This document shows positions 1-60,169 of a DNA stretch of 64,000 nucleotides, one piece after another; within the stretch, counting starts at the first letter, position 1; each line of letters begins with the position of its first letter. The stretch spans positions 19,840,001-19,904,000 of the forward strand of contig CM052850.1 of assembly GCA_028534125.1 (NCBI GenBank), in the 5' to 3' direction. The notes below the pieces were generated by a model, which did not search any database, was not told the DNA's origin, and saw only the letters and a list, made by a program, of their open reading frames with translations. A program made the position numbers and the translations under genes. Origin of the DNA: Lama glama (taxonomy: Eukaryota).

Positions 1-474
1 GTGTGCTGGCCTAGCCAGCAGGCGTCTCCCTGGGCCCATTCTATTTCATGCAGATGTTAGGGCTGTCGGCCCCCTTCTCCTCTGTGGTTTTCACTCCATG
101 TCTACCCCAGAACGCCCCTCCCCTGCTTCCCAAATCATCGGTCTTTTGTAGGTGACTACTCCTGAGGGTTGACAGGTGCCAGGTTGGCTCTGGGGGTTCA
201 AGACTTAACGAGACATGGAGCTCCAGGCTTGGGGGGAGGCAGGCGTTGAACAAGTCATGACAGGTATGACGGGAGCTTTGTAGGAGACAAAGCACATGCA
301 TGTGGCCTGGATCTGACCCGTAAAGCTGAGACTGAGTCTCTCATTCCTTCTTCCTGTTCCCCGCCCTCTTTCCCCCGCGGGGCCATTGCGCCTTCGCTTC
401 TTCCGGCTCCCCTGTGTCTGGCTCCCCATCGGCCCTGCCTCTTATATTTGTGCAGTGAAGGCCAGTGTTAGGAG

Positions 475-655
475 AACAGGCCTTCACACGGCAGATCTGG
501 GTTTGAATCCTGACTGCCATTTATTCCTGCTTCTGTAGAGGTGGGCGAGTTGCTTCAAGGCTTTGATTCTATTTCCTTGGGGTTGAACTTGACTCTGTTT
601 CTGGGCAATGCTGAGGATTCAGTGAGGCCCTACTGTGTGTACAGCATGTGACATG
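475..655 (+). mobile_element. MIR SINE (degenerate)
   Basis: gatctgggtttgaatcctgactgcc...gggcgagttgctt...tgaggattcagtgag matches the MIR layout. Confidence 0.6.
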
Positions 656-1494
656 GATTTTGGCCTAGGTGGAGCACTGGTACAGATTGTGGGGGAAGAG
701 AAGGGCCCCGGACTAAGAGTGAGGAAATTGGGTTTCTGGGCCTCTGCCATGTCATCTGGGAAATGGGAGCAGTGAGGTTGAGGACGATGTTAAGTCCTCT
801 GTCGGCCATTTTAGGAGGAGGACGGTTGTGAGGACCCAATGGAAGTAAGGAGCGAAGGGGAAGCAGCTCTTGGTGGCTCGGCAGGTGCTTCTCGGAGGGG
901 GCGCCGGGGAGGATTTATCTTCCTACCCAGGAGTGAAAACCCGCGAAGGCATTGTGGCTAAGTGGATTTTCTCACTGTCAGGAGACAGCTGAGAGACAGA
1001 CCCTTCTGGACAGCCTCCCGCCCCGCTGCCTCCTCCCTGCAGGCCAGCCCTTGGCATGAGGCCTGCTCGGCTCCTGAACCCTCCTAGCAGCAGGGATTTA
1101 ATTACTATAATGTAAGTAGCCATGGCTTGAGGCCTTCTGGCGGAGGGGAAACAGATTTGTCTTCTCACTGGGAGAATAAAAATCGATGGGAAGGAAAAGA
1201 ATTGTTCCTTCCTCTGAAGTACCCACTGCTGTTGGGCTGACGGGTAGCTTTGCTGGGGGGGAGGGTGGCGGGGAGAGAGAGGTGGGGCCAGCAGGGGGAG
1301 GAGACACACCGTCCACTTCAAGGACCCTTGGTACTTGTGTTTGTCTTCCGTGGGATGACTTGGCTAAGCTGCCTGTGTTTCCCCAGATCAGCCATCCAGT
1401 CAACAGCCATGTATCAAGCACCTGCTGTGTGCTTGGCACTGCCCTTTAGAAATTCCTCGCCGCGTACAGAGCCCAGGAAGAAAAATAGGTAACT

Positions 1495-2960
1495 TTATTC
1501 ATTCAGCAAATACTTATTGAACACCTACTATGTGCCGGGACCGTTCTAGGCACCACAGATATAGTAGAAAGAAACCACAAAAGGTGAAAATCCCTCGCCT
1601 CTGGAACTTACATTTTAGCAGGTAAAACTGACAGCGAACTATGTATTAATTATATATTATATTTGACGGAAATACATGATATGAAGAGAAAGGAAGCTGG
1701 GATGAGAGGGCAGGGAGTTCTGAGGGAAGAGTCATCATTTTAAATAAGTGTCTGGGAGGATCTCACAGAGAAGGTGACAATTGATGAAAGATCTTTAGGA
1801 GGGAAGGTGGTGAGCCCGGGGTGGGGGGAAGAGGAAGTTGCAGTATGAAGGCCCTGGGTCAGCATTATACCTGGTGTGGTCTGGACAGCTCTGTCCCGGA
1901 GAAATGGCATGTGAGCCACATCTGGAATTTTACATTGTCCTGTAGCCATGTTAGAGAAAGGAACAACAGAAATGGGAAATTAATGTTAATAATCCTTTTT
2001 ATTTAACCTAGTAGAGTAAAAATATTACCATTTCAACATGTAACCAATGTAAAAAAATACTGAGATAGTTTAGATTCTGCTTTTCATACTAAGTCTTAGA
2101 AATCCAGTGTGTTGTGTATCTTGTAAGCACATCTCAACTGGACACTAAATCTTCCCTGGAAATACCTGATCTGTATTTAGAGTTCATAAAATTGGCAGTT
2201 AAAAAGTAGACTCACATGCCTAGGTTGTTGCAGATATATTTTAAAGTTTTCTAATAAATGAATGGAGTATCATTTTTTAAAGTGTATATTGAAAACTGAA
2301 ATACATTAAAAAATTCCATTGCATTCGCTACACTGCAGGGCCTCAGTGGACATGTGGCCAGTTTCTGCTGTGTTGGACAGCGCAGGTCTTGGGCAGTGAG
2401 GCTGACTTGATGAGTGATGGGGGCGTTGAGGGAGCATGGGGGAGGGTGTGAGGTCAGAGAGGAGGTGGGACCAACTGCCAGGCTTTGTAGGCTGTTCTGA
2501 GGAGTTTGGCTTCTACCCTGGGTGAAATGGGAGCAGATGGAGGGCTCTGAGTGGAGAAGAAACAAGATCTGCCTTACATTTTAATAGGATCGCTCTGGCT
2601 GCGGTGTTGGGAACAGACGAGGGGGTGGGGGCAAAGGCGCCCAGTTAAGAAGCCGTGGTCACAGTCCAGGTGAGGAGTCAAGGTGCTTTGGACCCAGGTG
2701 GTAGCAATGAGATGGTGAGAAGTGGTTGGACCTTTGGAATATTTGGAAGGAAGGCATTCATGATGAACTGCATGCAGGAGTGTGGTGGTGGTGGGGAGGT
2801 GGCAGAGTAAGGGGAGGTCAAGGACGAGGCCAAGATTTTGGCCCAAGCACATGTAAGGATGGAATTTCTGTTAATTGGGTTGGAAATGACTGTGGGAGAA
2901 ACAGTTTTGGGGAGAAGATGGGAGTTTGGGGTTGGACTTGCTAGGTTTGAAATGTGTCGA
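1495..2960 (-). mobile_element. L2 LINE 3' region, interrupted by a hAT transposon
   Basis: Begins with the L2 tail ttcattcagcaaatacttattgaacacctactatgtgcc and resumes after 2386 with typical L2 sequence (ttttaataggatcgctctggctgc, gtggtagcaatgagatggtgagaagtgg). Confidence 0.8.
1886..2385. mobile_element. hAT-Charlie non-autonomous DNA transposon (MER33/Charlie1-like), about 500 bp
   Basis: Terminal inverted repeats cagctctgtcc...ggacagcgcag; AT-rich body with Charlie1-type motifs (aaaatattaccatttcaacatgtaacc, gcacatctcaactggac, gacatgtggccagt). Confidence 0.8.
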
Positions 2961-3649
2961 TTTCAACACAACATGGGTAGCATGTGCCCCGAGGCTGTGG
3001 GGGGTCGGAGACCTGGGACACGGAAAGCTTCTGCCTGAACCCCTGGGCCCTGAGGGAAGGCTCCCCTTGCATTCCAGAGGACAGTTCCCAGCACAGCTGG
3101 CCACGTTTTTAAAGAATTCAAATAAGTTCTCTGTGCTTCCAGCACTATCGGTGCTTACTCTCTGAAGGTCACTGGAAGCTTCTAGGATCTTCTGGGTCAG
3201 AGCCATATTTCAAGGTCACATCTCCCTGCTCTGGGCTGACCCGAGAGCAGTTTGATGAATTAAAAAGAGTCATAGTGGTCAACAGCTCCCCCAGCATTCT
3301 GGGGAGGCCAATATTATGGGAAGTTACTGAAACAATACAAAACTCTAAAGACATGTATTCCTGATTCCGCAGCACTTTAACTGCACAGGGATGTGGGGGA
3401 AGGGATTCACGGTCTCACAGCCCGGGAGGAGGATAGGGCCAGCTTCCTGGGAACCCCCAGCCCTCGTGTTCACCAGCCACGTCCCCAGGTACCCAGGGCT
3501 CTCAGGGACCTGCCGAGTCCTGTCACACCTGTTTGCTTGTCAGCTGGGAGGAGAGCTGGGAAAAGGGGCAGGAGTGGCTTTGAAGGTCTTCTCCCAACCC
3601 TTCTGGTGTCCGATGCTGGGACCTGGGCCTGGAGGGTGAGGGTCTTGGG

Positions 3650-3870
3650 ACCTGGGGACTAAGGCCACTCCATTCTGGCAGCCCAGGGTCCAGATCCAGA
3701 ACCTGATCCTTATTGGCTGTGAGACTTCAGTGATTTAATTTTTGAGTTCGTTGGCCCATCTGTTGAATGGGTGTGATGGTGCCTGCCTTGCAGTTGTGGG
3801 AAGTGATGTTAATGAATGACCTTAGCCCAGAGATGTGACACTTGGTAAATGCTGACTTGGTAAATACCGT
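3650..3870 (+). mobile_element. MIR SINE
   Basis: ggctgtgagacttcagtgatttaat...catctgttgaatgggtgtgatggtgcctgccttgcagttgtg is a decayed MIR core. Confidence 0.6.
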
Positions 3871-4102
3871 TTCCCTTCTTCCTTCCACTGATGTAAGAAC
3901 TGCTTGCAGGCAGGCCAGTTCTGGCCCTGGAGTGGTGGGAGGTGGTGCAGAAGGGAACACCTGAAGTGGTGTTGGAGCAAGGATGCCCAACGAGCAGCAT
4001 GAGTAGAAGAGAAAGGAGCACCTGCCTGAATGGGGGGAGTGAGAATGAGGTGGGGGTCTCCTCCCTTTCCTGAGGCCTGGATCTATCTCTGTGCCTTTAG
4101 GT

Positions 4103-4315
4103 CAAGGTTTCAGCTGGGGCGACTTTGCTCCCCAGGGGGCTGTTTGGCAATGTCCACAGACATTCTCAGTCATCACGACTAGGGGAGGGATGTTACAGAC
4201 GTCTGGTGGAGAGAGGCCAGGGATGCTGGTAAACATCGCACAACACCCAGGACAGTCCCCGCTACAAAGAATTACCCGGCCCTGGTGTCAGCAGTACGGA
4301 GGCTGGGGAACCCTG
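4103..4315 (+). mobile_element. MER20 hAT-Charlie DNA transposon, near full length
   Basis: ggggcgactttgctccccagggggctgtttggcaatgtc...gaggccagggatgctggtaaacatc...aaagaattacccggccc; 8-bp TSD ctttaggt (4095-4102) / ctttagat (4316-4323). Confidence 0.9.
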
Positions 4316-5199
4316 CTTTAGATGACTCATCCTCGCAGGCTGCTTAGGAGGAGATGAGAAAACGGACGAGGTTGCTTTATTACCTTCAGTGTACCATCCT
4401 AATCCCTCTCTTCCCCCACCTCATCCCAGGGGCAGCCCTGTGTGTGGGGGGACTCTGGCCCAGGAGTCGGAAGACCCGAGTTCAAGGCCCAACTCAATGG
4501 AGTGCTTCCTTGTGTCTGATCCCCGTGTCTTTCATCCTTGCGGTCTCCTGTGTAAATGGGGCAGTGGTGTCTCGCGGTGGTGGGCTGTGGCATGGACCCG
4601 ATCGGAGCCTGCATGGGGAAGATGCTCATCTGTGCGATGTGCTGACAGACGGGAGGTGGCAGGATGAGAGACTTTTGACACTTGCACCAATGATACTTGA
4701 GGATGGCGGGACAGAGCCAAGGAACAGCCCTCTGCCCTGCTGGGCCACAGGCTGTTCCCCCCAGGCCTGCTCCCTTTTGCTTCTTGTTTTGTGTTTTCTT
4801 GAACAGGTGGAGCTGAAGTCTCCTCTTGGGAAGACGGAATTTGCAGGAAAATGCAGGGCTATTATTTCTGTGCTGTGTGAGTGGGAGACAGAGCTGGGTG
4901 AGTGGCAGATTTCCCGGCAGGGGAGAGACAGCTGAGTGCTCCAGCCTGGGCATTGCTAGAATCCTTTTGGGGTGGGTGGGCCAGGATTCCCTAGTAGCCA
5001 CCTCGGGAAACAAATCTTTGTTCTGAGCTCAAGACTGGCTCCAGGGAAAGACCAAGGCCTGGCTGTCCGGGAAGGGTCTGCATCAATATGGTGAAGCTCT
5101 GAGGACGCTCTTCTGGGTTCGGCGCCAGGCACTGTCCCCAGAAATGTTGGGGGACAGAGAGATGGACAGTGCATGGTTGGGGAGTGGCCAGGCCACCAT

Positions 5200-5720
5200 A
5201 ACTCCTAGGAAAGGCAGACTGTGATACGTGCCCTAATGAGGGACAATGTCACACTGAGGGCACATCTGGGGGCTTCTTAGAGAAAGTGGGGGTGGCACGG
5301 GCTTCGTAGGTAGGGACGGCTTCCTGAGGCCAAAGGGAAAGTGTACTCTGAGCCGCAGGCAGTTTGGGCAGAGGCCTAAAGTTGGAGAGCACCTGGTGTT
5401 CTCAGGGACAAAGGAGGTAGGCTTTTCTGGAAGCGTTCGGAAGAGAAGACTCAAAAGGGATGTGAAAGCTGCCCACGGGGGCTTGCACACGGGGCCGAGG
5501 AGTTTGCACTATTGTCTCAAGGCACAGAGAGCCATGGGAGTTATCTGAGTGGAACAGTGTTGTGCTCAAACCCCAGCAGAGGATGGATTCCAAAAGGAGC
5601 AGGGAGGCTGGCTGGAAGGTTATTGCAATAGTTCTAGCAAAGGAGAGGTGAAGGCTTGAACCAGGCTGGGGGCCAAGGGAGGGAAGGTGTGTGAACAGGG
5701 TAGGGCTTTGTGGAGACAGG
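5200..5720 (-). mobile_element. L2 LINE fragment
   Basis: L2-like segments: ggcttcctgagg, gagccatgggagttatctgag, ggttattgcaatagttctagcaaaggagaggtgaaggcttgaaccagg. Confidence 0.6.
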
Positions 5721-5861
5721 TGATGTGTAGTGTTCACATTTCTCCATCCTGGATAACTAGCTTGTGTGTAAGGGTCAGAGTGAGTACTGTGGCCTGATCC
5801 CTTCCCCGCTCTGCTCAAAGCCAGCGCCTTCTTGGAGGGCGGACAGGCAGCTGTGAGCCCC

Positions 5862-6002
5862 GGAGCAGCCTGCCAGTCCCGGAGGGCGGGGTGGCCCAGT
5901 GCCCGCCCCAGCCACCCCGGCTGGGGGGCTTTCCTTCTGGAACCCACGGGGCTCAGCGTTGGCCTCTTGCCAGGCCCGAGGGAGATGGAACACACCCTCT
6001 TC
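5862..6002 (+). repeat. Left arm of a long inverted repeat (weaker homology extends to about 5798)
   Basis: Reverse complement of 7799-7948; core gggggctttccttctggaaccca...ccaggcccgagggagatggaacacaccctcttc. Confidence 0.92.
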
Positions 6003-6039
6003 CTGCTCGTTTTCAAAGATCGGGGAGGGAGAGCGCCAG

Positions 6040-6240
6040 CGTGCTGGAGCCAGCTACGCTTGGGCTCACGTTGCAGCTCGGGTGCTGACAGGCTGTGCGG
6101 TTGGGCAGGTTGCCCGGTCTCCCTGAACCTCAGCCTGTGCATGTGTGAAATGGGGGTCACAGTGTTCAGCCCCCAGGGTGTTGTGGGAGAGGATTAATAA
6201 GAACACAGCTGTAAAGTTCTTAGCTCAGTACATGGCCACT
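6040..6240 (+). mobile_element. MIR SINE, GC-enriched
   Basis: ttgggcaggttgcccggtctccctgaacctcagcc...tgaaatggggg...gaggattaataag...tgtaaagttcttagctcagtacatggc. Confidence 0.7.
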
Positions 6241-7309
6241 ATTTCAATTTACAAGACCCAGAGACAGACGGGTGTGGCGGGGTGAAGAGAGGCAGGACCG
6301 AGTTGCCTATAAAGGAGATGGAGGCCCGGGAAGTGGTTGAGATGGTGAGTTCTGTCTTGGGTGTGTCGGCTGAGGAGTAGGGGGAGTCCCTGGAGGATAT
6401 CCTGTGGGAATCAGGTGGTGCTGGCAGTCTTCCGGCAGTGGGGAGTCACGGGGAGTCACAGGGAGCATCCTTACTAGTAACTTGGAATCTTTCCCAAACC
6501 CCAGCCTCACTGCAGGGGGTCCCAGTGTGGAGCTCGGGGGTCAGCCCAGCCTTGGTCCTCCACGCCTCCCGCCCAGAGGATGGCCCCACCTCTGCCCAGG
6601 GACCTGCTGAGTCTTGGCGCAGTGCCGGCTCCAGAGAGGAGAGAGCCCTGGATTTGGGGTCAGTGACCTGACATTCGCCCTGGTTCTGTCCCCTCCCTGT
6701 CAGGGCAAGCCTGGCAGGTGTGTGGGCTTTCTGAGGGGCAGCGCCCTCATCCACAAAGTGGAGACAGTTGTCAGGAGGATCTGTGAGGTGAGGGCTGGGA
6801 AGGCCTCCCACAGGCACCTTTTTTAGGGGCCCTCAGCAAACGTTTGGTGAATGAGTGGAGGGAAGGCTGGGCGGTGGGCAGAGAGGGATGGTGGGAGGCG
6901 GCCCCGAGGAGAGGCCAGGGGACAGGGCGGGCAGCGAGGGGGTCAGGGAGACCCCGCCTCAGCTCCTGGCTCTGCCGCTTGCTTCCGGGTGACTTTGAGC
7001 TTCGGTGTCTTCCTCATTACTGCTATGTGCGGGTGGTGGGGATGGGAGGTTGGGTTGCGGGGCCGCTTTCGTGCTGCCTTGCAGGGTGTTGACAGGCCTG
7101 GAGGGAGAAACAGATCTAGAGGGACACACGGAGTGTCCACATCCCTCCGTTAGTAAGCACAGGAGGCAGTGAGAGCGCAAGCGCCCCCGAGAGGGCGGTC
7201 CCCGAGTGCCTCCCTTTCCTCGACTGTTGGAGCGCGGAGAGAAGGGGTGCTTCCGAAGGCCCGGCTTTTTCGCTGCCCTGACTGTGTTCCTTTGCTCTTT
7301 CCTCTCCAG

Positions 7310-7515
7310 AAGCATGACCCAGCCCTACGGACACTGGCTGTAGCCGCCTCAGGGAGCCGGGGCATCACGGCGGGGCAGGGCCTGTAGGGGAGCAGTCTGT
7401 AGAGAATATAAAAACGTAAAAATAAATAAAACCGACGAAAAGTCGGTTCACTTTTATTATCACCAGGCACCTGCTCTTCTAAATAAAATTTGGGATGAAA
7501 CCGTCCCCCTTGCGG
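7310..7515. mobile_element. Probable decayed hAT-Charlie element (MER113-like)
   Basis: The AT-rich core aaataaataaaaccgacgaaaagtcggttcacttttattatcacca...ttctaaataaaatttgggatgaaa resembles my recollection of a Charlie/MER113 consensus; not verified. Confidence 0.4.
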
Positions 7516-7798
7516 GCCAGATGCTCCCAGCCCCGCCCTTGGTGAGCCCCTGCCTGATGGCCCTCCAGGGAAGAGCCTTGGAACTGTCAGTTCTGGGCGG
7601 ACACTCACGGAACCCTAGCCGAGGAAGCAGAGATGGTCTGGAGGGTGGGCCATGCATGACTGCAGTGGCAGCCCGGCCTTGGGGCCCAGGGGACCTCCCT
7701 GGGAAGTGAGGGGAGAGCAGGGGATGAGGAGGTGCGGGGAGTGCCGACTGTGAGCTCAGGCTAGGAAGGCGTTGTCTAGGCCCCTTGGACGCTGGCGT

Positions 7799-7948
7799 GA
7801 AGAGGGTGTGTTCCACCTCCCTCGGGCCTGGCAGGAGGCCAGCGCTGAGCTCCATGGGTTCCAGAAGGAAAGCCCCCGGCCAGGGCGGCTGGTGCCAGCT
7901 GGTGTGGGCACTGGGCGGCCCCGCTCCATGGGACTGGCGGGCTGCTCC
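7799..7948 (-). repeat. Right arm of a long inverted repeat (weaker homology extends to about 8040)
   Basis: gaagagggtgtgttccacctccctcgggcctggcagg...ccagaaggaaagccccc...gggactggcgggctgctcc pairs with 5862-6002. Confidence 0.92.
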
Positions 7949-10439
7949 TCAGCCCCGACGGAGGGACTGGGGAGGGGGGGACCCAGGCTTGCTCTGGGGC
8001 TCCTGTAGCTGGGAGGGGTTTGAGGGAGGCGGGAGGCAGGCCGAGACGCACATTTCTCCACCTTGCAGAACAACGATGTGCACCAGGGTCAAAATAAGCC
8101 CTTTTGGGCTTTAATGACCATGGTTTAACAGGTTTCCCTGCAGGGCTGTGGGAGGGGCCCGTGTGGAGGGATTGTGGGAGCGTTTCTCCTGACCGGAGAG
8201 GCTCAGCGGATGTACAAGGAGGAAAGCGTGTCCCTGTGGCTGGCTGCGGCTTGCGGCCCCAGGGAAGTGTGTGACTGGGATCCGGCAGCCTTTGGCCCAT
8301 TTTCTGCGTGAACCCCTGGGAGGGCTGCTTGCCAGGGATCAGCAAGGCCCGTGTCTGTTTTGAAGCCACATGCCTTCGGTTGTTGCTGTATCTGAAGCAG
8401 AGATGCATCAGTCCAGATGGGCCTCAGTGGTCCTGTGTGGTAGGGCCCCTGCAGTGAGGAGAGCAGAGAACTTTGGGACTTCGGGGCATGAGAGTCCCTT
8501 TTCTGGATCTGCTCCCCAAGGCAGGTGTGTTCGGTTCCATCTGGAGCCCTTTTGGAACCAGGGAGTGGGCTGGTGTATTGCTGTCTGGGGCTTCTGGGGC
8601 TGAGCAGCCAGGCTAAGCTTAGCCCAGAGACACTTCCTAGAAACTCAAGGCACCATCACAGTATTGGCTGGATGTTGAGGAGTGGCACGAGGTAGTGCAC
8701 GAACGGGAAACAGGTTTTATCAGGGTGTCAGCTCTGAACAATTGGTACCAGCTGCCAGAAGGGATATTTTGAGAAGGATTCTGAGGTGTGATCTGAGCTT
8801 GGTGGGAAGAGTTGATTCGTGATGTCTCTCCTGGGCAAGGAGGGATGGAGGAGGGGCAAGGTGTTTGCCATCTCTGGCATAGTGGAAAGGGAGCCTACGT
8901 TTTATCTCGGGTGAGTAACTTTTATCTCTGGGCCCCAGTTTCCACATCTCTAAAATGGGAGTGAAAATGTTACCCTTCCAACCTCATAGGCTTATTGTGG
9001 GGACTGAGTAAGAGAGTGGAGTGAAAGTACTTTGTCAAAGACAAAAAAACTGATTCATGTGCAGAATGGGGGTTCTGTAGTCATGGAATCACTCAGGGCC
9101 CCCAGATGACCTAATAACAGTGATGTCTGCAGTCATTGCTTTCTCTGCTGCACTGAGGACCAGACCACTCTGCGGTGTGCGTTAAGAGCCATGGCTCACG
9201 TGACGGGGGCCTGCGTCGTGCCTGACACCCAGGCCCTTTGTACACTCTTGGCCAAAGTGTCAACAAAGTGTCCGGTTGGAATTCACTTCATTTCTCTCAC
9301 TGACCCTCTCCCCAACTTGAAAGATTTAGAGACTGTTTTTGTGTTTAACGAGAAAAGGACAGAAAATCTCTCCCCTTGACTCTTACACTCCATTAAAGAT
9401 AGCAGAATTGCTTTACCAAGTCTGAAAGCCTGACAAGAGGATGTACTAATAACGCATGAATTATGCAAATCTGTATAGTCATTTGATTTGCATAATGGAG
9501 GGGCAGGAGGAGGGCTGGGGAGGGGAGAGAGCGGGGGTGAGGGCACCTGCCCAGATCTGTGTGTGATGGGGACACCCCTTCTCTCCTCCCTCCTCAACTT
9601 CTAGTCCTGAGGGTGACTGCTTCTCAGCCTTTCCCTGCTGGCCCTGTGTCTGGCCCTCTGCCGGCTGGCTTACACGGCCATCCCTCCCCCTCACAGGAGT
9701 GTCACCCAGGCAGGGACATATCGCCCTGTGCTCCTCTCTCATGTGGAACTGGCTTCATTAAATCTCACAGCAGCCCCTCCGTGTACAGACAGCTTTCCCG
9801 GAGAAGTCCCCGGGGTCATTATTTCACCAAACTGTTCTGTCTCTCGGAGGTCGTGGACTTAGTTAAGCGCCGTCTGGAATTGTAACCGTTGCCAAGTGCC
9901 TTTTCCTCTGGCTCTGTGGGAAGTGAGTGTGAGAAGGTGTCTAGAGGAGAGAACTCCCGTGACGCCCCTGGTTTCTGATCACTGCTCGATGGGTCTGGGC
10001 CTCTGGCTGTGAAGCAGGCTCCATCTTCTGCTTTCCCTCCCGGCTTCCCTGAGCCCTTTCTATCTTAAGATTTCAGATTTGATTAGGGCTGAAGTTGGGG
10101 CGGGGGTACTTGAGGCCTGGCCCTAGTGGGTGCTGTCTGGGAGCCTGGGTGGAGGGGGGCACAGACTGAAGGGGTGTGGGTACCAGCTAAGGAGGCAGGG
10201 GGGCAGTGGTAGGGGCCGGGCAGCTGGCTGCTCCAGAAAGTGTTGATCCTTCGCTCGGTGGGGCAGCTTCTTGTCCTGGAGGACGTTCTGTGAGGCAGCT
10301 GCAGGGACCAGTCCTGGCTGGGAGTGGGCAGGGGTGTCTAGCTTCTGGAAGGGCCGAGCTCTGTGGGCCAGGTCTCACGTTAGGCGCTAGAACCGTGGAG
10401 ATAAAAAAGCACTTGTGTGTCCCACTTCCTGAGCTCCTG

Positions 10440-10630
10440 CCCTCGGTGCCGATCCTGTGCTATACCCCGTGTTTCAATGTGTCATCTCAGTTAATGTTCA
10501 CAACAGCTTGATGAAGTCACTGCTCTTATTTCCCCATTTTATAGATGAGTAAGTTGAATCTTGGTCACAGGGCCAGTAAGTGGCAAAGCTAGGTCTTCTG
10601 AGTCCGTAGCCCTTTCTCCTGACCACAGCG
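10440..10630 (-). mobile_element. MIR SINE
   Basis: ttattccccattttatagatgagtaagttgaa...ggtcacagggccagtaagtggcaaagct. Confidence 0.7.
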
Positions 10631-11878
10631 CTTCCACAGACTCCGACCCCTCCCTCGAGGCTCTCGTGGTAACAGTGTAAGCAGATGATGGGTGTGGTGA
10701 AGTATGGTAAGTGCAAAGAGAGAGGTTTGAACTAGGACTAGAAGTAGCACAGGGGATTTCATTATGTCAGGGAGGGCCAGGGAGGGCCAGGGAAGGCTGG
10801 CAGAAGGGGTGCACCCTGAATAAACCACAGAGGGAAAACTAGCTTCTGTCTGGCACTTGGCTCATTGGGCTGGGGTGGGGAGTGGGAGCTTTCAGATGAG
10901 CAGAGTAATTCCAGATGCTCTCAGCCCCTGTCCTGCCCTACTTGTAGGGTGGGGCTGGATGAGGGGAAGCTGACGGACTTCAGGGAGCCCTGGCTAAGAT
11001 GGGCAGGTGGGGCAGGTGTGGGTGCTACCCCAGGGGCTCCTCCCCTTGCCCCATATGTTCAGCCAGTGCCCTGGCCTCCCTGGCCTGGCCAGACAGCCCT
11101 GGGAGCTGGGGTCTGTGGGCGCCTGAACTGTGTGTGGACTCTGCCTGCCCCAGGTGAGGCCTTGGCTGTTTCCACACCCACACCCACTCAGGCCTGAGGA
11201 TGGGGCCATCCAGAGCAGCCCTGAGAATTCTGGGCTGGAAGGACCTTGAATCTCACAGAGGAGGGGTCTGAGGTTCAGAGGGGAAGTAACTTCCCCGGGT
11301 CCCACGGCTGGTGAAGAAGCAGATCAGCTCCAGGTTTTGCAGCCTCAGCTCTACCTGGGTCTCCTCTCACTTACTGGCTCCCTTGGGCTCCCACCCTTTC
11401 CAGGCTGTGGGTGCCCCCTCAGCACCCACTGTCTTGTACCCATGCACCCACACGTGTCCAGTCTGCTGTGTTTGCCTCATGCTTGGCCATCCCCTTGGGA
11501 TCCTTTAAGGCCAGGGCTTTGTTCTGGAGAGAATTTAAATGGAATTGTCAGATGAGGAAGGAGCAGAATCTCCTAATTACATTACCCCCTGAGAGGCCCC
11601 TCACACACACTCAGCTCACTCTCCCCACCCCCTTGCTCCTGTCCTGGGGATGCTCTGACTGGGGAGTGGGGATGGAGGGTGAGGGCAGAATCTGGTAGAT
11701 CTGAAAGAGTTTCTGCAGGAAGTTTGGAGTGAGGGGGACTCCCTGTCGGAATCACAGAGGTGTGAGCTGGAATCCTGACTCCACCACTTATAACCTGTGT
11801 GACTTTAGGCAAGTGACTGAATTTCTTTGCGTGTCAGTTTCCTCATGAATAAAATGGGGGTAATAATAGCACCTACCT

Positions 11879-12144
11879 CAGTGGTTCCCGAACTTTGCTA
11901 CGTTTTGCCATCGCCTGGGAATCTTTAAAATATGCTAAAGTCTGGCTACCAGTTGTTGTTGTTGTTGGCGGTCCTGGAGATTGAACCCAGGACCTCATGC
12001 ATGCTAAGCACACACTCTACCACTGAGCTCTACCTTCCCCGCTGGTTTCCAGCTTTTAACCTTCTGATTTCATTGGTCTAGGGTGCAACCTGGTATCAGG
12101 AGTTTAAAAAACTTCCCAGTGAGCTGCCAAGTTGGGACCCACAG
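11879..12144. mobile_element. MER5-type hAT-Charlie element, itself interrupted by a SINE
   Basis: cagtggttcccgaacttt...cctgggaatctttaaaa...ttctgatttcattggtctagggtg...ccaagttgggacccacag. Confidence 0.75.
11952..12040 (-). mobile_element. tRNA-Ala-derived camelid SINE (Vic-1 type), short form
   Basis: Reverse complement is ggggaaggtagagctcagtggtagagtgtgtgcttagcatgcatgaggtcctgggttcaatctccagg + (aac)n tail; A and B boxes present; imperfect TSD ctggctaccag/ctggtttccag. Confidence 0.85.
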
Positions 12145-30594: not shown

Positions 30595-30867
<273 letters not shown>

Positions 30868-49205: not shown

Positions 49206-49335
49206 TATTTTGTTTGTTTTTGTTTTGTGGGAGGTTAGGTTTATTTACTTAATGGAGGCACTGGGGATTGAACCTAGGACCTTGTGCATGCCGAGCACAT
49301 ATCCTAGCACTGAGCTATACTCTCCTCCCTCCCCC
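49206..49335 (-). mobile_element. tRNA-Ala-derived camelid SINE (Vic-1 type)
   Basis: ggaggcactggggattgaacctaggaccttgtgcatgccgagcac...ctgagctatactc; TSD-like agagcctcttt / agaggctcttt. Confidence 0.85.
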
Positions 49336-54035: not shown

Positions 54036-54172
54036 GAGGGGAGTATATGGCTCAAGCAGTAGAGCGCATGCTTAGTATGTACAAGGTCCTTGGTTCAACT
54101 CCCAGTACCTCCTCTAAAAATAAATACATAAATAAACCTAATTACCTCCTCCCTGCCAAAAAAGTGGTAGGA
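54036..54172 (+). mobile_element. tRNA-Ala-derived camelid SINE (Vic-1 type)
   Basis: tatatggctcaagcagtagagcgcatgcttagtatgtacaaggtccttggttcaactcccagtacctcc + A-rich tail; TSD-like taaactccacctggttt / taaacgccaccagatt. Confidence 0.88.
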
Positions 54173-55549: not shown

Positions 55550-56160
55550 TTATTTCATTCACTGAGTATTTTTGTTTTTGTTTTTTTGTGAAGGGAGGTC
55601 ATTAGATCTATTTATTTATTATTAAATTTTTTTAATGGAGATACTGGGGATTGAACCCAGGACTTTGTGCATGCTAAGCATATGCTCTACCATTTGAGCT
55701 ATACCCTCCCACACTCATTGAGTATTTGTTAAACACCTAGTTTTAAGGGCAGGCTCTGGGGAGACAATGGAGCTAGAAATAGATGTGGCCTCTGCCCTCA
55801 AGTAGCTTATAGTCTTATAACAGATCAGATTCCATCAGATAATTGCACAAATAATTAAATTGTAACTATAATAAGTATCACAAGTAGCCTAGGATCAAGC
55901 CAGTCAATAGGAGGATGACCAGGTCCTAACTTGGCACAGAGTGAAGAGAAAAGCATTGTAGGCTGAGGGAACAGCATGCCCAAAGGCCACGTGTGTCAGG
56001 AAGGAGAAGATGAGCATGGCAGCCTGAAAGATGGCCAGCGTGGTTGAAGTAGACGGAGCAAGGGGCGTGACACGCAAATGGAGGCTGCGGAGAAGGAGGG
56101 ACCCAATCCTTCGGAGCCCTGCGGGCGCTGAGAAGATGACTTGTCTTCATTCTGCACAAT
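55550..56160 (-). mobile_element. L2 LINE 3' region
   Basis: tttcattcactgagtattt...agatgtggcctctgccctcaagtagcttatagtct...agggaacagcatgcccaaaggcc. Confidence 0.7.
55570..55710 (-). mobile_element. tRNA-Ala-derived camelid SINE (Vic-1 type) inserted in an L2 tail
   Basis: ggagatactggggattgaacccaggactttgtgcatgctaagcatatgctctaccatttgagctataccctccc; TSD-like cattcactgagtattt / cactcattgagtattt. Confidence 0.9.
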
Positions 56161-60024: not shown

Positions 60025-60169
60025 GGGGAGGGTATAGCTCAGTGGTAGAGCGCCTGCATAGCATGCACAAGATCCTAGGTTCAATCCCCAGTACCTCCAT
60101 TACAGAAAGCAAATAAAAGCTTAAAAATAAATAAAAAAGAATAACTTTAAAACAGCCTACGTATTTTTA
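60025..60169 (+). mobile_element. tRNA-Ala-derived camelid SINE (Vic-1 type) with a perfect 18-bp TSD, inserted in a MIR
   Basis: ggggagggtatagctcagtggtagagcgcctgcatagcatgcacaagatcctaggttcaatccccagtacctcca; TSD aaaatagggataatgaca at 60007-60024 and 60170-60187. Confidence 0.93.

Follow-up and report, generated by a model that had tools for sequence, protein, structure and literature searches.

Templated insertions of reverse-complement sequence are a documented class of mutation, in which nearby DNA is copied to leave a single inverted repeat; in the part of PMC7954356 available to us, these insertions have a median length of 12 and a maximum of 128 nt, and their templates lie tens to hundreds of bases away. 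Recurrent NAHR inversions, for example HsInv0389 at FLNA-EMD, likewise have unique DNA set between inverted repeats; the excerpts of PMC3961182 and PMC6748972 give arms of 0.65-32 kb with >90% identity. At the RNA level, PCCRs (PMC8052449) and PHRIC pairs (PMC10691357) are described, in the accessible text of both papers, as complementary stretches in which A-to-I editing is over-represented and which are able to loop out exons or 3' ends. In TBXT, an inverted AluY-AluSx1 pair 1,448 bp apart (228/297 identical) leads to exon skipping, as does an engineered non-Alu pair of 220-297 bp (PMC10901737, in extract).

The inverted pair studied here lies in a 64-kb window (the whole stretch of DNA that was analysed). 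Its left arm is at 5862-6002 on the forward strand (141 bp, GC 0.72) and its right arm at 7799-7948 on the reverse strand (150 bp, GC 0.71). As the initial annotation had proposed, the two are reverse complements, aligning over 150 columns at 84% identity (E 4.2e-37; score 197, against at most 50 in 200 shuffles) with length differences of 10 bp and 1 bp. The enclosed segment, given there as about 1.8 kb, is a spacer of 1796 bp at 6003-7798. Placement in intron 1 of KCNN3 was likewise confirmed: the exon at 30718-30813 (forward strand) has an SK_channel match, its named protein matches are almost all KCNN3/SK3, and in an alignment of 36 named proteins the exon-1 peptide in most cases leads straight into it. 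Since this is KCNN3 exon 2, the gene, strand and intron of the pair are settled. For KCNN3, exons 1B and 1C have been confirmed to lie downstream of exon 1A (10.1101/713826), and antisense RNA is reported elsewhere in the gene (PMC13685430), both in the portions of these sources at hand. At the locus, none of five reading frames had a Pfam match and none of ten had an exact counterpart in the protein collection. A protein search with the left-arm frame gave four unnamed records among 38 candidates, and these play no part in the analysis. A literature search for KCNN3 together with inverted repeat gave no relevant account, and the inversion literature found by search did not mention KCNN3.

Nowhere is the window richer in GC than in the unit formed by the pair. 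The arms cover parts of both of the most GC-rich 141-bp windows in the 64 kb scanned, and beyond the unit no 1796-bp stretch goes above 0.585, as against 0.607 in the spacer. The spacer also carries the G>C strand skew of its surroundings (+0.165, with +0.18 and +0.13 in the flanks; 7/8 blocks of 200 bp positive). A patch at 7001-7500 (GC 0.56) has the highest CpG o/e, 0.69, among the 500-bp windows scanned. Just inside the left arm, at 6045-6214 on the forward strand, is a copy of an ancient repeat common in the window, which we take to be MIR-like; it shows the strongest AT-to-GC shift of 31 copies (21/46 vs 289/1271, p 5e-4, uncorrected for the 31 copies). Neutral decay alone predicts neither the GC richness of the unit nor this GC-shifted relic, and both count against the duplication reading given below.

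In the alignment of the arms, CpG and other columns were treated separately. The 79-bp core (5924-6002 and 7799-7877) differs at five positions, all transitions, exactly as had been described, although five of five is unremarkable given 12/16 transitions overall (0.24). A weaker similarity, said to extend to about 5798 and 8040, was not recovered: its score of 21 was reached by 794/2000 shuffles, and the anchored outward extension of the arms by 113/200. The outer parts had been called far more diverged. They are more diverged in the raw contrast, with 5/79 events in the core against 13/63 outside (Fisher 0.02 at the chosen boundary, 0.095 with the boundary free), but "far more" is weakened, as the contrast largely vanishes when CpG decay is allowed for. 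The outer part has 15 CpG columns and the core 7, and differences fall in 7/22 CpG columns as against 9/118 elsewhere (p 0.004). Non-CpG substitutions number 5/46 outside and 4/72 in the core (p 0.31; 0.11 with two indels), and a CpG-stratified permutation of core against outer part gives 0.11 with the boundary fixed and 0.27 with it free. The non-CpG divergence of the arms is compatible with uniform decay. The arms are identical over at most 23 bp in a row, a length matched in 55% of random placements. They are separated by a K2P distance of 0.126, near the bottom of the range among five tRNA-derived SINE copies (0.12-0.27, 10 pairs). The core nevertheless stays nominally better kept (Fisher 0.02 raw; a 79-column window with at most five differences turns up in 9% of random placements), an observation that speaks against simple duplication and decay.

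The explanation we lean towards, by a modest margin over even, is a single, old, local inverted duplication that took in about 145 bp of unique, GC-rich intron DNA, left the spacer unflipped and is now decaying. The segment would have been copied in inverted orientation 1.8 kb away, presumably by template switching during replication or the repair of a break, after which ordinary mutation, most rapid at CpG, would have driven the two copies apart. At a mammalian neutral rate, and assuming no homogenisation, the event may date very roughly to 20-30 million years ago. The resemblance to templated insertions lies in the reverse-complement copy of nearby DNA, but the events described in the available part of PMC7954356 are at most 128 nt long with closer templates. 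A junction signature and the donor copy were looked for at the locus and neither was established; strand bias gave +9.1 for the right arm and -1.9 for the left, a difference within noise (27% of 67 windows were as low). On this reading the KCNN3 pair would be of little consequence, a further example of an inverted pair decaying within a long intron. The window has seven inverted pairs within 6 kb, this one included, which makes potential duplexes a common feature of it.

The initial annotation had also suggested selection for a long-range RNA duplex, noting that the core differences would give three G-U wobbles and two A-C mismatches of the type favoured by ADAR on the sense strand. This count is correct, but the argument built on it is uninformative, since any transition in an inverted pair that appears as G-U in the sense duplex appears as A-C in the antisense duplex, and vice versa. 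Across the whole arms the sense duplex has G-U and A-C at 7:5, as expected of any transitions, though this comparison has low power, and the duplex energies of sense and antisense are nearly equal (-299 vs -288 kcal/mol). The ability to pair is supported by in silico folding of 2.25 kb, where pairing probability is about 1 over most of the core and the minimum free energy is -1194 kcal/mol, as against -1058 with pairs over 1 kb forbidden; the sense-strand excess of G-U over A-C that a functional duplex might be expected to show was not seen. Going by these folds, the arms probably pair transiently in nascent KCNN3 pre-mRNA, and light A-to-I editing might follow as a by-product; the six other close inverted pairs could likewise pair or be edited. 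The KCNN3 arms share with PCCRs and PHRIC pairs their complementarity, their position in one intron and their kilobase-range pairing. However, as far as the accessible text goes, PCCRs are defined by cross-species conservation (PMC8052449) and PHRIC pairs by RIC-seq contacts (PMC10691357), whereas the KCNN3 pair is defined by its complementarity. It is also, because of the duplication, far more stable (about -299 kcal/mol) than the PHRIC median of -23 (PMC10691357). KCNN3 does not appear in the five supplements of PMC8052449 and the one file of PMC10691357 that were searched.

Among the alternatives, the one that survives best, though we consider it unlikely, is an older inverted pair kept alike by occasional GC-biased gene conversion between the arms, without inversion, the last event covering the inner 79 bp. 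The sharp inner boundary and nominally better core would fit such a history, as would the overlap of the arms with the two GC-richest windows and the AT-to-GC shift of the adjoining relic. The core contrast, however, is insignificant after CpG stratification, and the excess-identity patch between the arms goes from p 0.02 raw to 0.095-0.31 corrected. The longest identity of 23 bp also compares poorly with the roughly 200 bp given as the minimal efficient segment for rodent cells, and conversion rates are much reduced near 80% identity, although shorter conversions do occur (PMC3924818, in the part available). The core can be accounted for without invoking gene conversion.

Nearly as well placed, and also improbable, is a functional loop-out, in which co-transcriptional pairing of the arms would hide a cryptic terminal exon in the spacer and so prevent or tune a truncated SK3. 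A candidate 3' splice site at 7278-7309 on the forward strand has a branch-point-like motif, a pyrimidine tract and an AG at 7309 that ranks 2 of 4888 sense AGs, with the true exon 2 ranking 1, on crude matrices. The predicted exon would begin at 7310-7387 (forward strand) with 25 codons and a stop in phase 0, the phase in which exon 1 ends, so that the product would be the exon-1 peptide plus 25 residues. Three AATAAA motifs (7421, 7425 and 7482; 7421-7487, forward strand) follow 111-172 nt downstream of the acceptor, and no donor scores above 3 up to 7800, which makes up a terminal-exon signature at the level of prediction. Among 1000 shuffles of the spacer, a comparable acceptor appeared in 11 and one with AATAAA in 1. 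That the loop encloses a configuration this rare stands as an observation against duplication and decay alone. We conclude that the loop holds a candidate hidden terminal exon which, if used, would truncate SK3 after exon 1.

What is described elsewhere lends the loop-out some plausibility: terminal exons that are looped out and polyA clusters that lie within paired regions (PMC8052449), and a 283-residue SK3 fragment that suppresses SK current (PMC12560630), both as given in the excerpts at hand. The TBXT pairs have similar spacing and identity and also loop out a splice site, but there, in the text available (PMC10901737), a real internal coding exon is skipped with proven effect, whereas the KCNN3 arms share one intron and the exon is predicted and terminal. 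Against the proposal, the site was found after the fact and with a crude matrix, and the antisense control also holds acceptor-like AGs (four scoring >=10, none with AATAAA in 300 nt; two scoring >=7 with AATAAA within 200 nt). The tail was absent from the four named short mammalian SK3 forms compared (drawn from 116 matches), and the region matched none of 36 named SK3 proteins. The polyA signals would be transcribed 310-380 nt ahead of the right arm, the first AATAAA already sits in a local hairpin (7421-7458) where it pairs with an opposite-strand AATAAA at 7453-7458 (z -3.85, 0/200 shuffles), and duplex quality lacks sense-strand bias. A more elaborate version is more doubtful still: the duplication would have been recruited as an RNA clamp racing polyadenylation, elongation rate or ADAR editing setting the ratio of full-length to N-terminal, possibly dominant-negative SK3, and GC-biased conversion keeping the clamp matched. 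KCNN3 is tied to atrial fibrillation and neuronal firing. Were the loop-out true, the locus would offer a clean natural test of the published idea that RNA structure suppresses intronic polyadenylation, and its arms, being unique sequence, would be easy to delete or block.

We give about a one-in-ten order of belief, no higher than for a long shot, to an enhancer module in duplicate, in which selection on factor-binding sites would preserve the two copies on either side of a CpG-rich regulatory patch. Both arms retain an intact NF-kB-like consensus (5925 and 7876), within the longest identical run, and the highest CpG o/e of the window is inside the spacer; but the loose form of this consensus occurs 48 times in the window, GC-box matches are confined to the left arm, the CpGs of the arms are decaying, and a search on a KCNN3 first-intron enhancer gave no lead in the literature excerpts retrieved.

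It is very improbable that the arms are two copies of a rare dispersed repeat in opposite orientation by chance. The other six close inverted pairs do involve multi-copy elements, but a self-comparison of the 64 kb gave two copies of the arm, with both ends in common, and no third; when the self-search was made sensitive, the strongest remaining match to an arm had E 0.008 across 63 columns. The arms showed neither a target-site duplication nor an A-tail and no tRNA match, and Rfam gave no family at the locus (three weak matches, E 1.9-4.6). Nor is a known structured ncRNA indicated, the single arms being unremarkable in fold stability (z-scores -0.44 and +1.36).

Least credible of all is the earlier suggestion of a cassette recurrently flipped by recombination between the arms: there are indeed inverted arms around a unique spacer, and on the opposite strand of that spacer an acceptor-like site (7699, score 7.9) is followed 240 nt later by AATAAA, but recurrent inversion is disfavoured because the spacer keeps the skew of its flanks (Fisher 0.82 as it stands, 2e-17 if flipped, sites treated as independent; an indirect test of whether both orientations have existed) and because arms of 141/150 bp with 84% identity and at most 23 identical bp in a row fall below the 654 bp-24.2 kb and >90% of documented human NAHR inversions (PMC6748972, part seen). 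The spacer's strand score of +133 likewise exceeded all 25 held-out windows, under a model trained on its flanks.

Other features of the region were considered. A single old LINE-like relic spanning the left flank and part of the spacer would have fixed the orientation and the donor arm, but it gave no alignment above shuffles. The piece at 7340-7560 resembles a small DNA-transposon relic and may be one; its terminal inverted similarity was reached in 28/1000 shuffles and no other copy was found. A direct repeat at 5735-5784 and 8049-8098 was matched in 3/300 shuffles of 500-bp flanks and in 25/300 of 1-kb flanks, and in view of the latter we treat it as probably due to chance.

The inverted pair is a real feature of the window. 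On self-comparison, 5862-6002 aligned in reverse to 7948-7799 over 150 columns with 84% identity (E 4.2e-37), the inner edge being abrupt. The 79-bp core described in the initial annotation (5924-6002 against 7799-7877) was confirmed, with five differing positions, all transitions. The outer similarity claimed to extend to 5798 and 8040 was not upheld, as shuffles matched it (794/2000, and 113/200 in a second test). A 50-bp direct similarity around arms and spacer together (5735-5784 and 8049-8098; 70%, 12 bp exact) was borderline against shuffles (3/300 and 25/300). An SK-channel exon was located on the + strand at 30718-30813; its named relatives are nearly all KCNN3, and the majority of 36 named proteins have it immediately after the exon-1 peptide, with a codon boundary between. 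Since this identity and order make it the KCNN3 exon following the exon-1 peptide, the proposed location of the pair in intron 1 is borne out. The pair lies about 23 kb from exon 2, and its left arm is transcribed before the right. An earlier description of the locus was not found in searches of open-licence papers.

All readings rest on one sequence, from which the pair is, on balance, probably a neutral, decaying duplication. Arm divergence (K2P 0.126; non-CpG 0.08, interval 0.035-0.14) is at the low end of the range found between SINE copies of the window; the arms would thus last have been identical fairly recently on the mammalian scale, via duplication or conversion. Template switching is reported to yield reverse-complement copies, although these are usually shorter and from closer templates than the pair seen here (PMC7954356). 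Analysis of the window sequence singled out neither a donor arm nor a junction mechanism.

An older pair with occasional conversion is unlikely. Divergence events numbered 5/79 in the core and 13/63 in the outer part, and this raw contrast (p 0.02 at a hand-picked boundary, 0.095 with the boundary free) agrees with the claim that the outer parts are far more diverged. However, CpG columns, which differ much more often than non-CpG columns (7/22 vs 9/118), lie mostly in the outer part, and without them the contrast fades (core 4/72 vs outer 5/46, p 0.31). Because of this, and because the longest identity between the arms (23 bp) is typical under random placement, a conversion tract is not required to explain the core, although the comparison has low power. 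Efficient conversion in rodent cells is reported to need roughly 200 bp (PMC3924818). No other part of the window is as GC-rich as the unit of arms and spacer, which also contains the window's CpG-richest 500 bp; the initial annotation does not mention this. Next to the left arm, a copy of an ancient repeat (6076-6162) showed the highest AT-to-GC shift among 31 copies (21/46 vs 289/1271), about twice the rate of the 30 others; across these copies the shift tracks flank GC (rho 0.38). This suggests that GC-biased repair or recombination acted here in the past, the shift at 6076-6162 being a possible conversion trace. Plain decay leaves both the GC richness and the shift unexplained.

The proposed RNA duplex between the arms does form in silico, where, with 2.25 kb folded, most core pairs reach a probability near 1 and the long-range pairs add ~136 kcal/mol of stability, but any inverted duplication of this kind would give such pairing. 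The argument for a sense-RNA duplex from G-U and A-C pairs proved empty, since a transition always produces one of the two; the arms' 12 transitions divide 7:5, and nearly the same stability is predicted for the antisense duplex. Editing is expected of long duplexes (PMC8052449) and alone would not demonstrate function. In its mode of action the pair would resemble long-range complementary pairs within introns, of the inverted-Alu kind or of the PCCR kind (pairs of complementary intronic regions); PCCR and PHRIC membership is described as resting on conservation or contact data (PMC8052449, PMC10691357). Six further inverted pairs with partners no more than 6 kb apart occur in the window. Repeat-derived pairs in intron 2, 0.8-5 kb apart (53160-53498/58452-58758, 54039-54163/55582-55710 and 47355-47443/48238-48328), are also able to pair in pre-mRNA.

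A shade less likely than conversion is a functional duplex that loops out a predicted cryptic terminal exon in the spacer (6003-7798), a feature absent from the initial annotation. With a crude acceptor matrix, the acceptor at 7309 ranked second among 4888 sense AGs, behind only true exon 2; it has a branch-point-like motif and three AATAAA signals 111-172 nt downstream, and a donor is absent. The combination of acceptor and AATAAA arose in 1/1000 spacer shuffles, but that test was set up after the site was seen, and four antisense acceptor-like decoys (32537, 24613, 50032 and 38378, minus strand) scored about as well as exon 2. Moreover, a predicted local hairpin already masks the first AATAAA, and the signals are transcribed earlier than the right arm. 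Exon 1 spliced to 7310 would append 25 residues before a stop, a tail carried by none of the named proteins checked. In its favour, published work describes suppression of SK current by an SK3 fragment of similar size (PMC12560630) and exon skipping in TBXT caused by inverted pairs of comparable size and spacing (PMC10901737). The hairpin itself (7421-7458) is A+T-rich, with z -3.85 and AATAAA on each strand. The ~200 bp around it (7340-7560) may, by resemblance, be a small DNA-transposon relic; their terminal similarity was reached in 28/1000 shuffles.

A duplicated enhancer ranks lower again in likelihood. That the arm is a rare repeat is very improbable, as a sensitive self-search found no third copy in the window and no Rfam family was found for the pair. 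Recurrent inversion of the spacer as a flippable cassette, also proposed initially, is unlikely and the least credible reading. Hereabouts in the intron the sense strand is strongly biased to G over C; this bias would be expected to change sign after one recent flip and to weaken under repeated ones, yet the spacer (+0.165) keeps the skew of its flanks in full (+0.18 and +0.13). The arms are also shorter and less identical than those reported for human NAHR inversions (654 bp-24.2 kb, identity >90%; PMC6748972), and the pair departs from such inversions (PMC3961182) in the features compared here. Across 1-12000 of the window the sense-strand skew reaches +0.24 per 1.8 kb, weakening toward exon 2 and intron 2. 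A short tRNA-derived SINE is also present in five copies (11966-12040, 49250-49325, 54037-54112, 55636-55710 and 60025-60099), elements that would fit the camelid source guessed initially; three of the copies exceed Rfam's threshold for tRNA and might be taken for tRNA genes in annotation.
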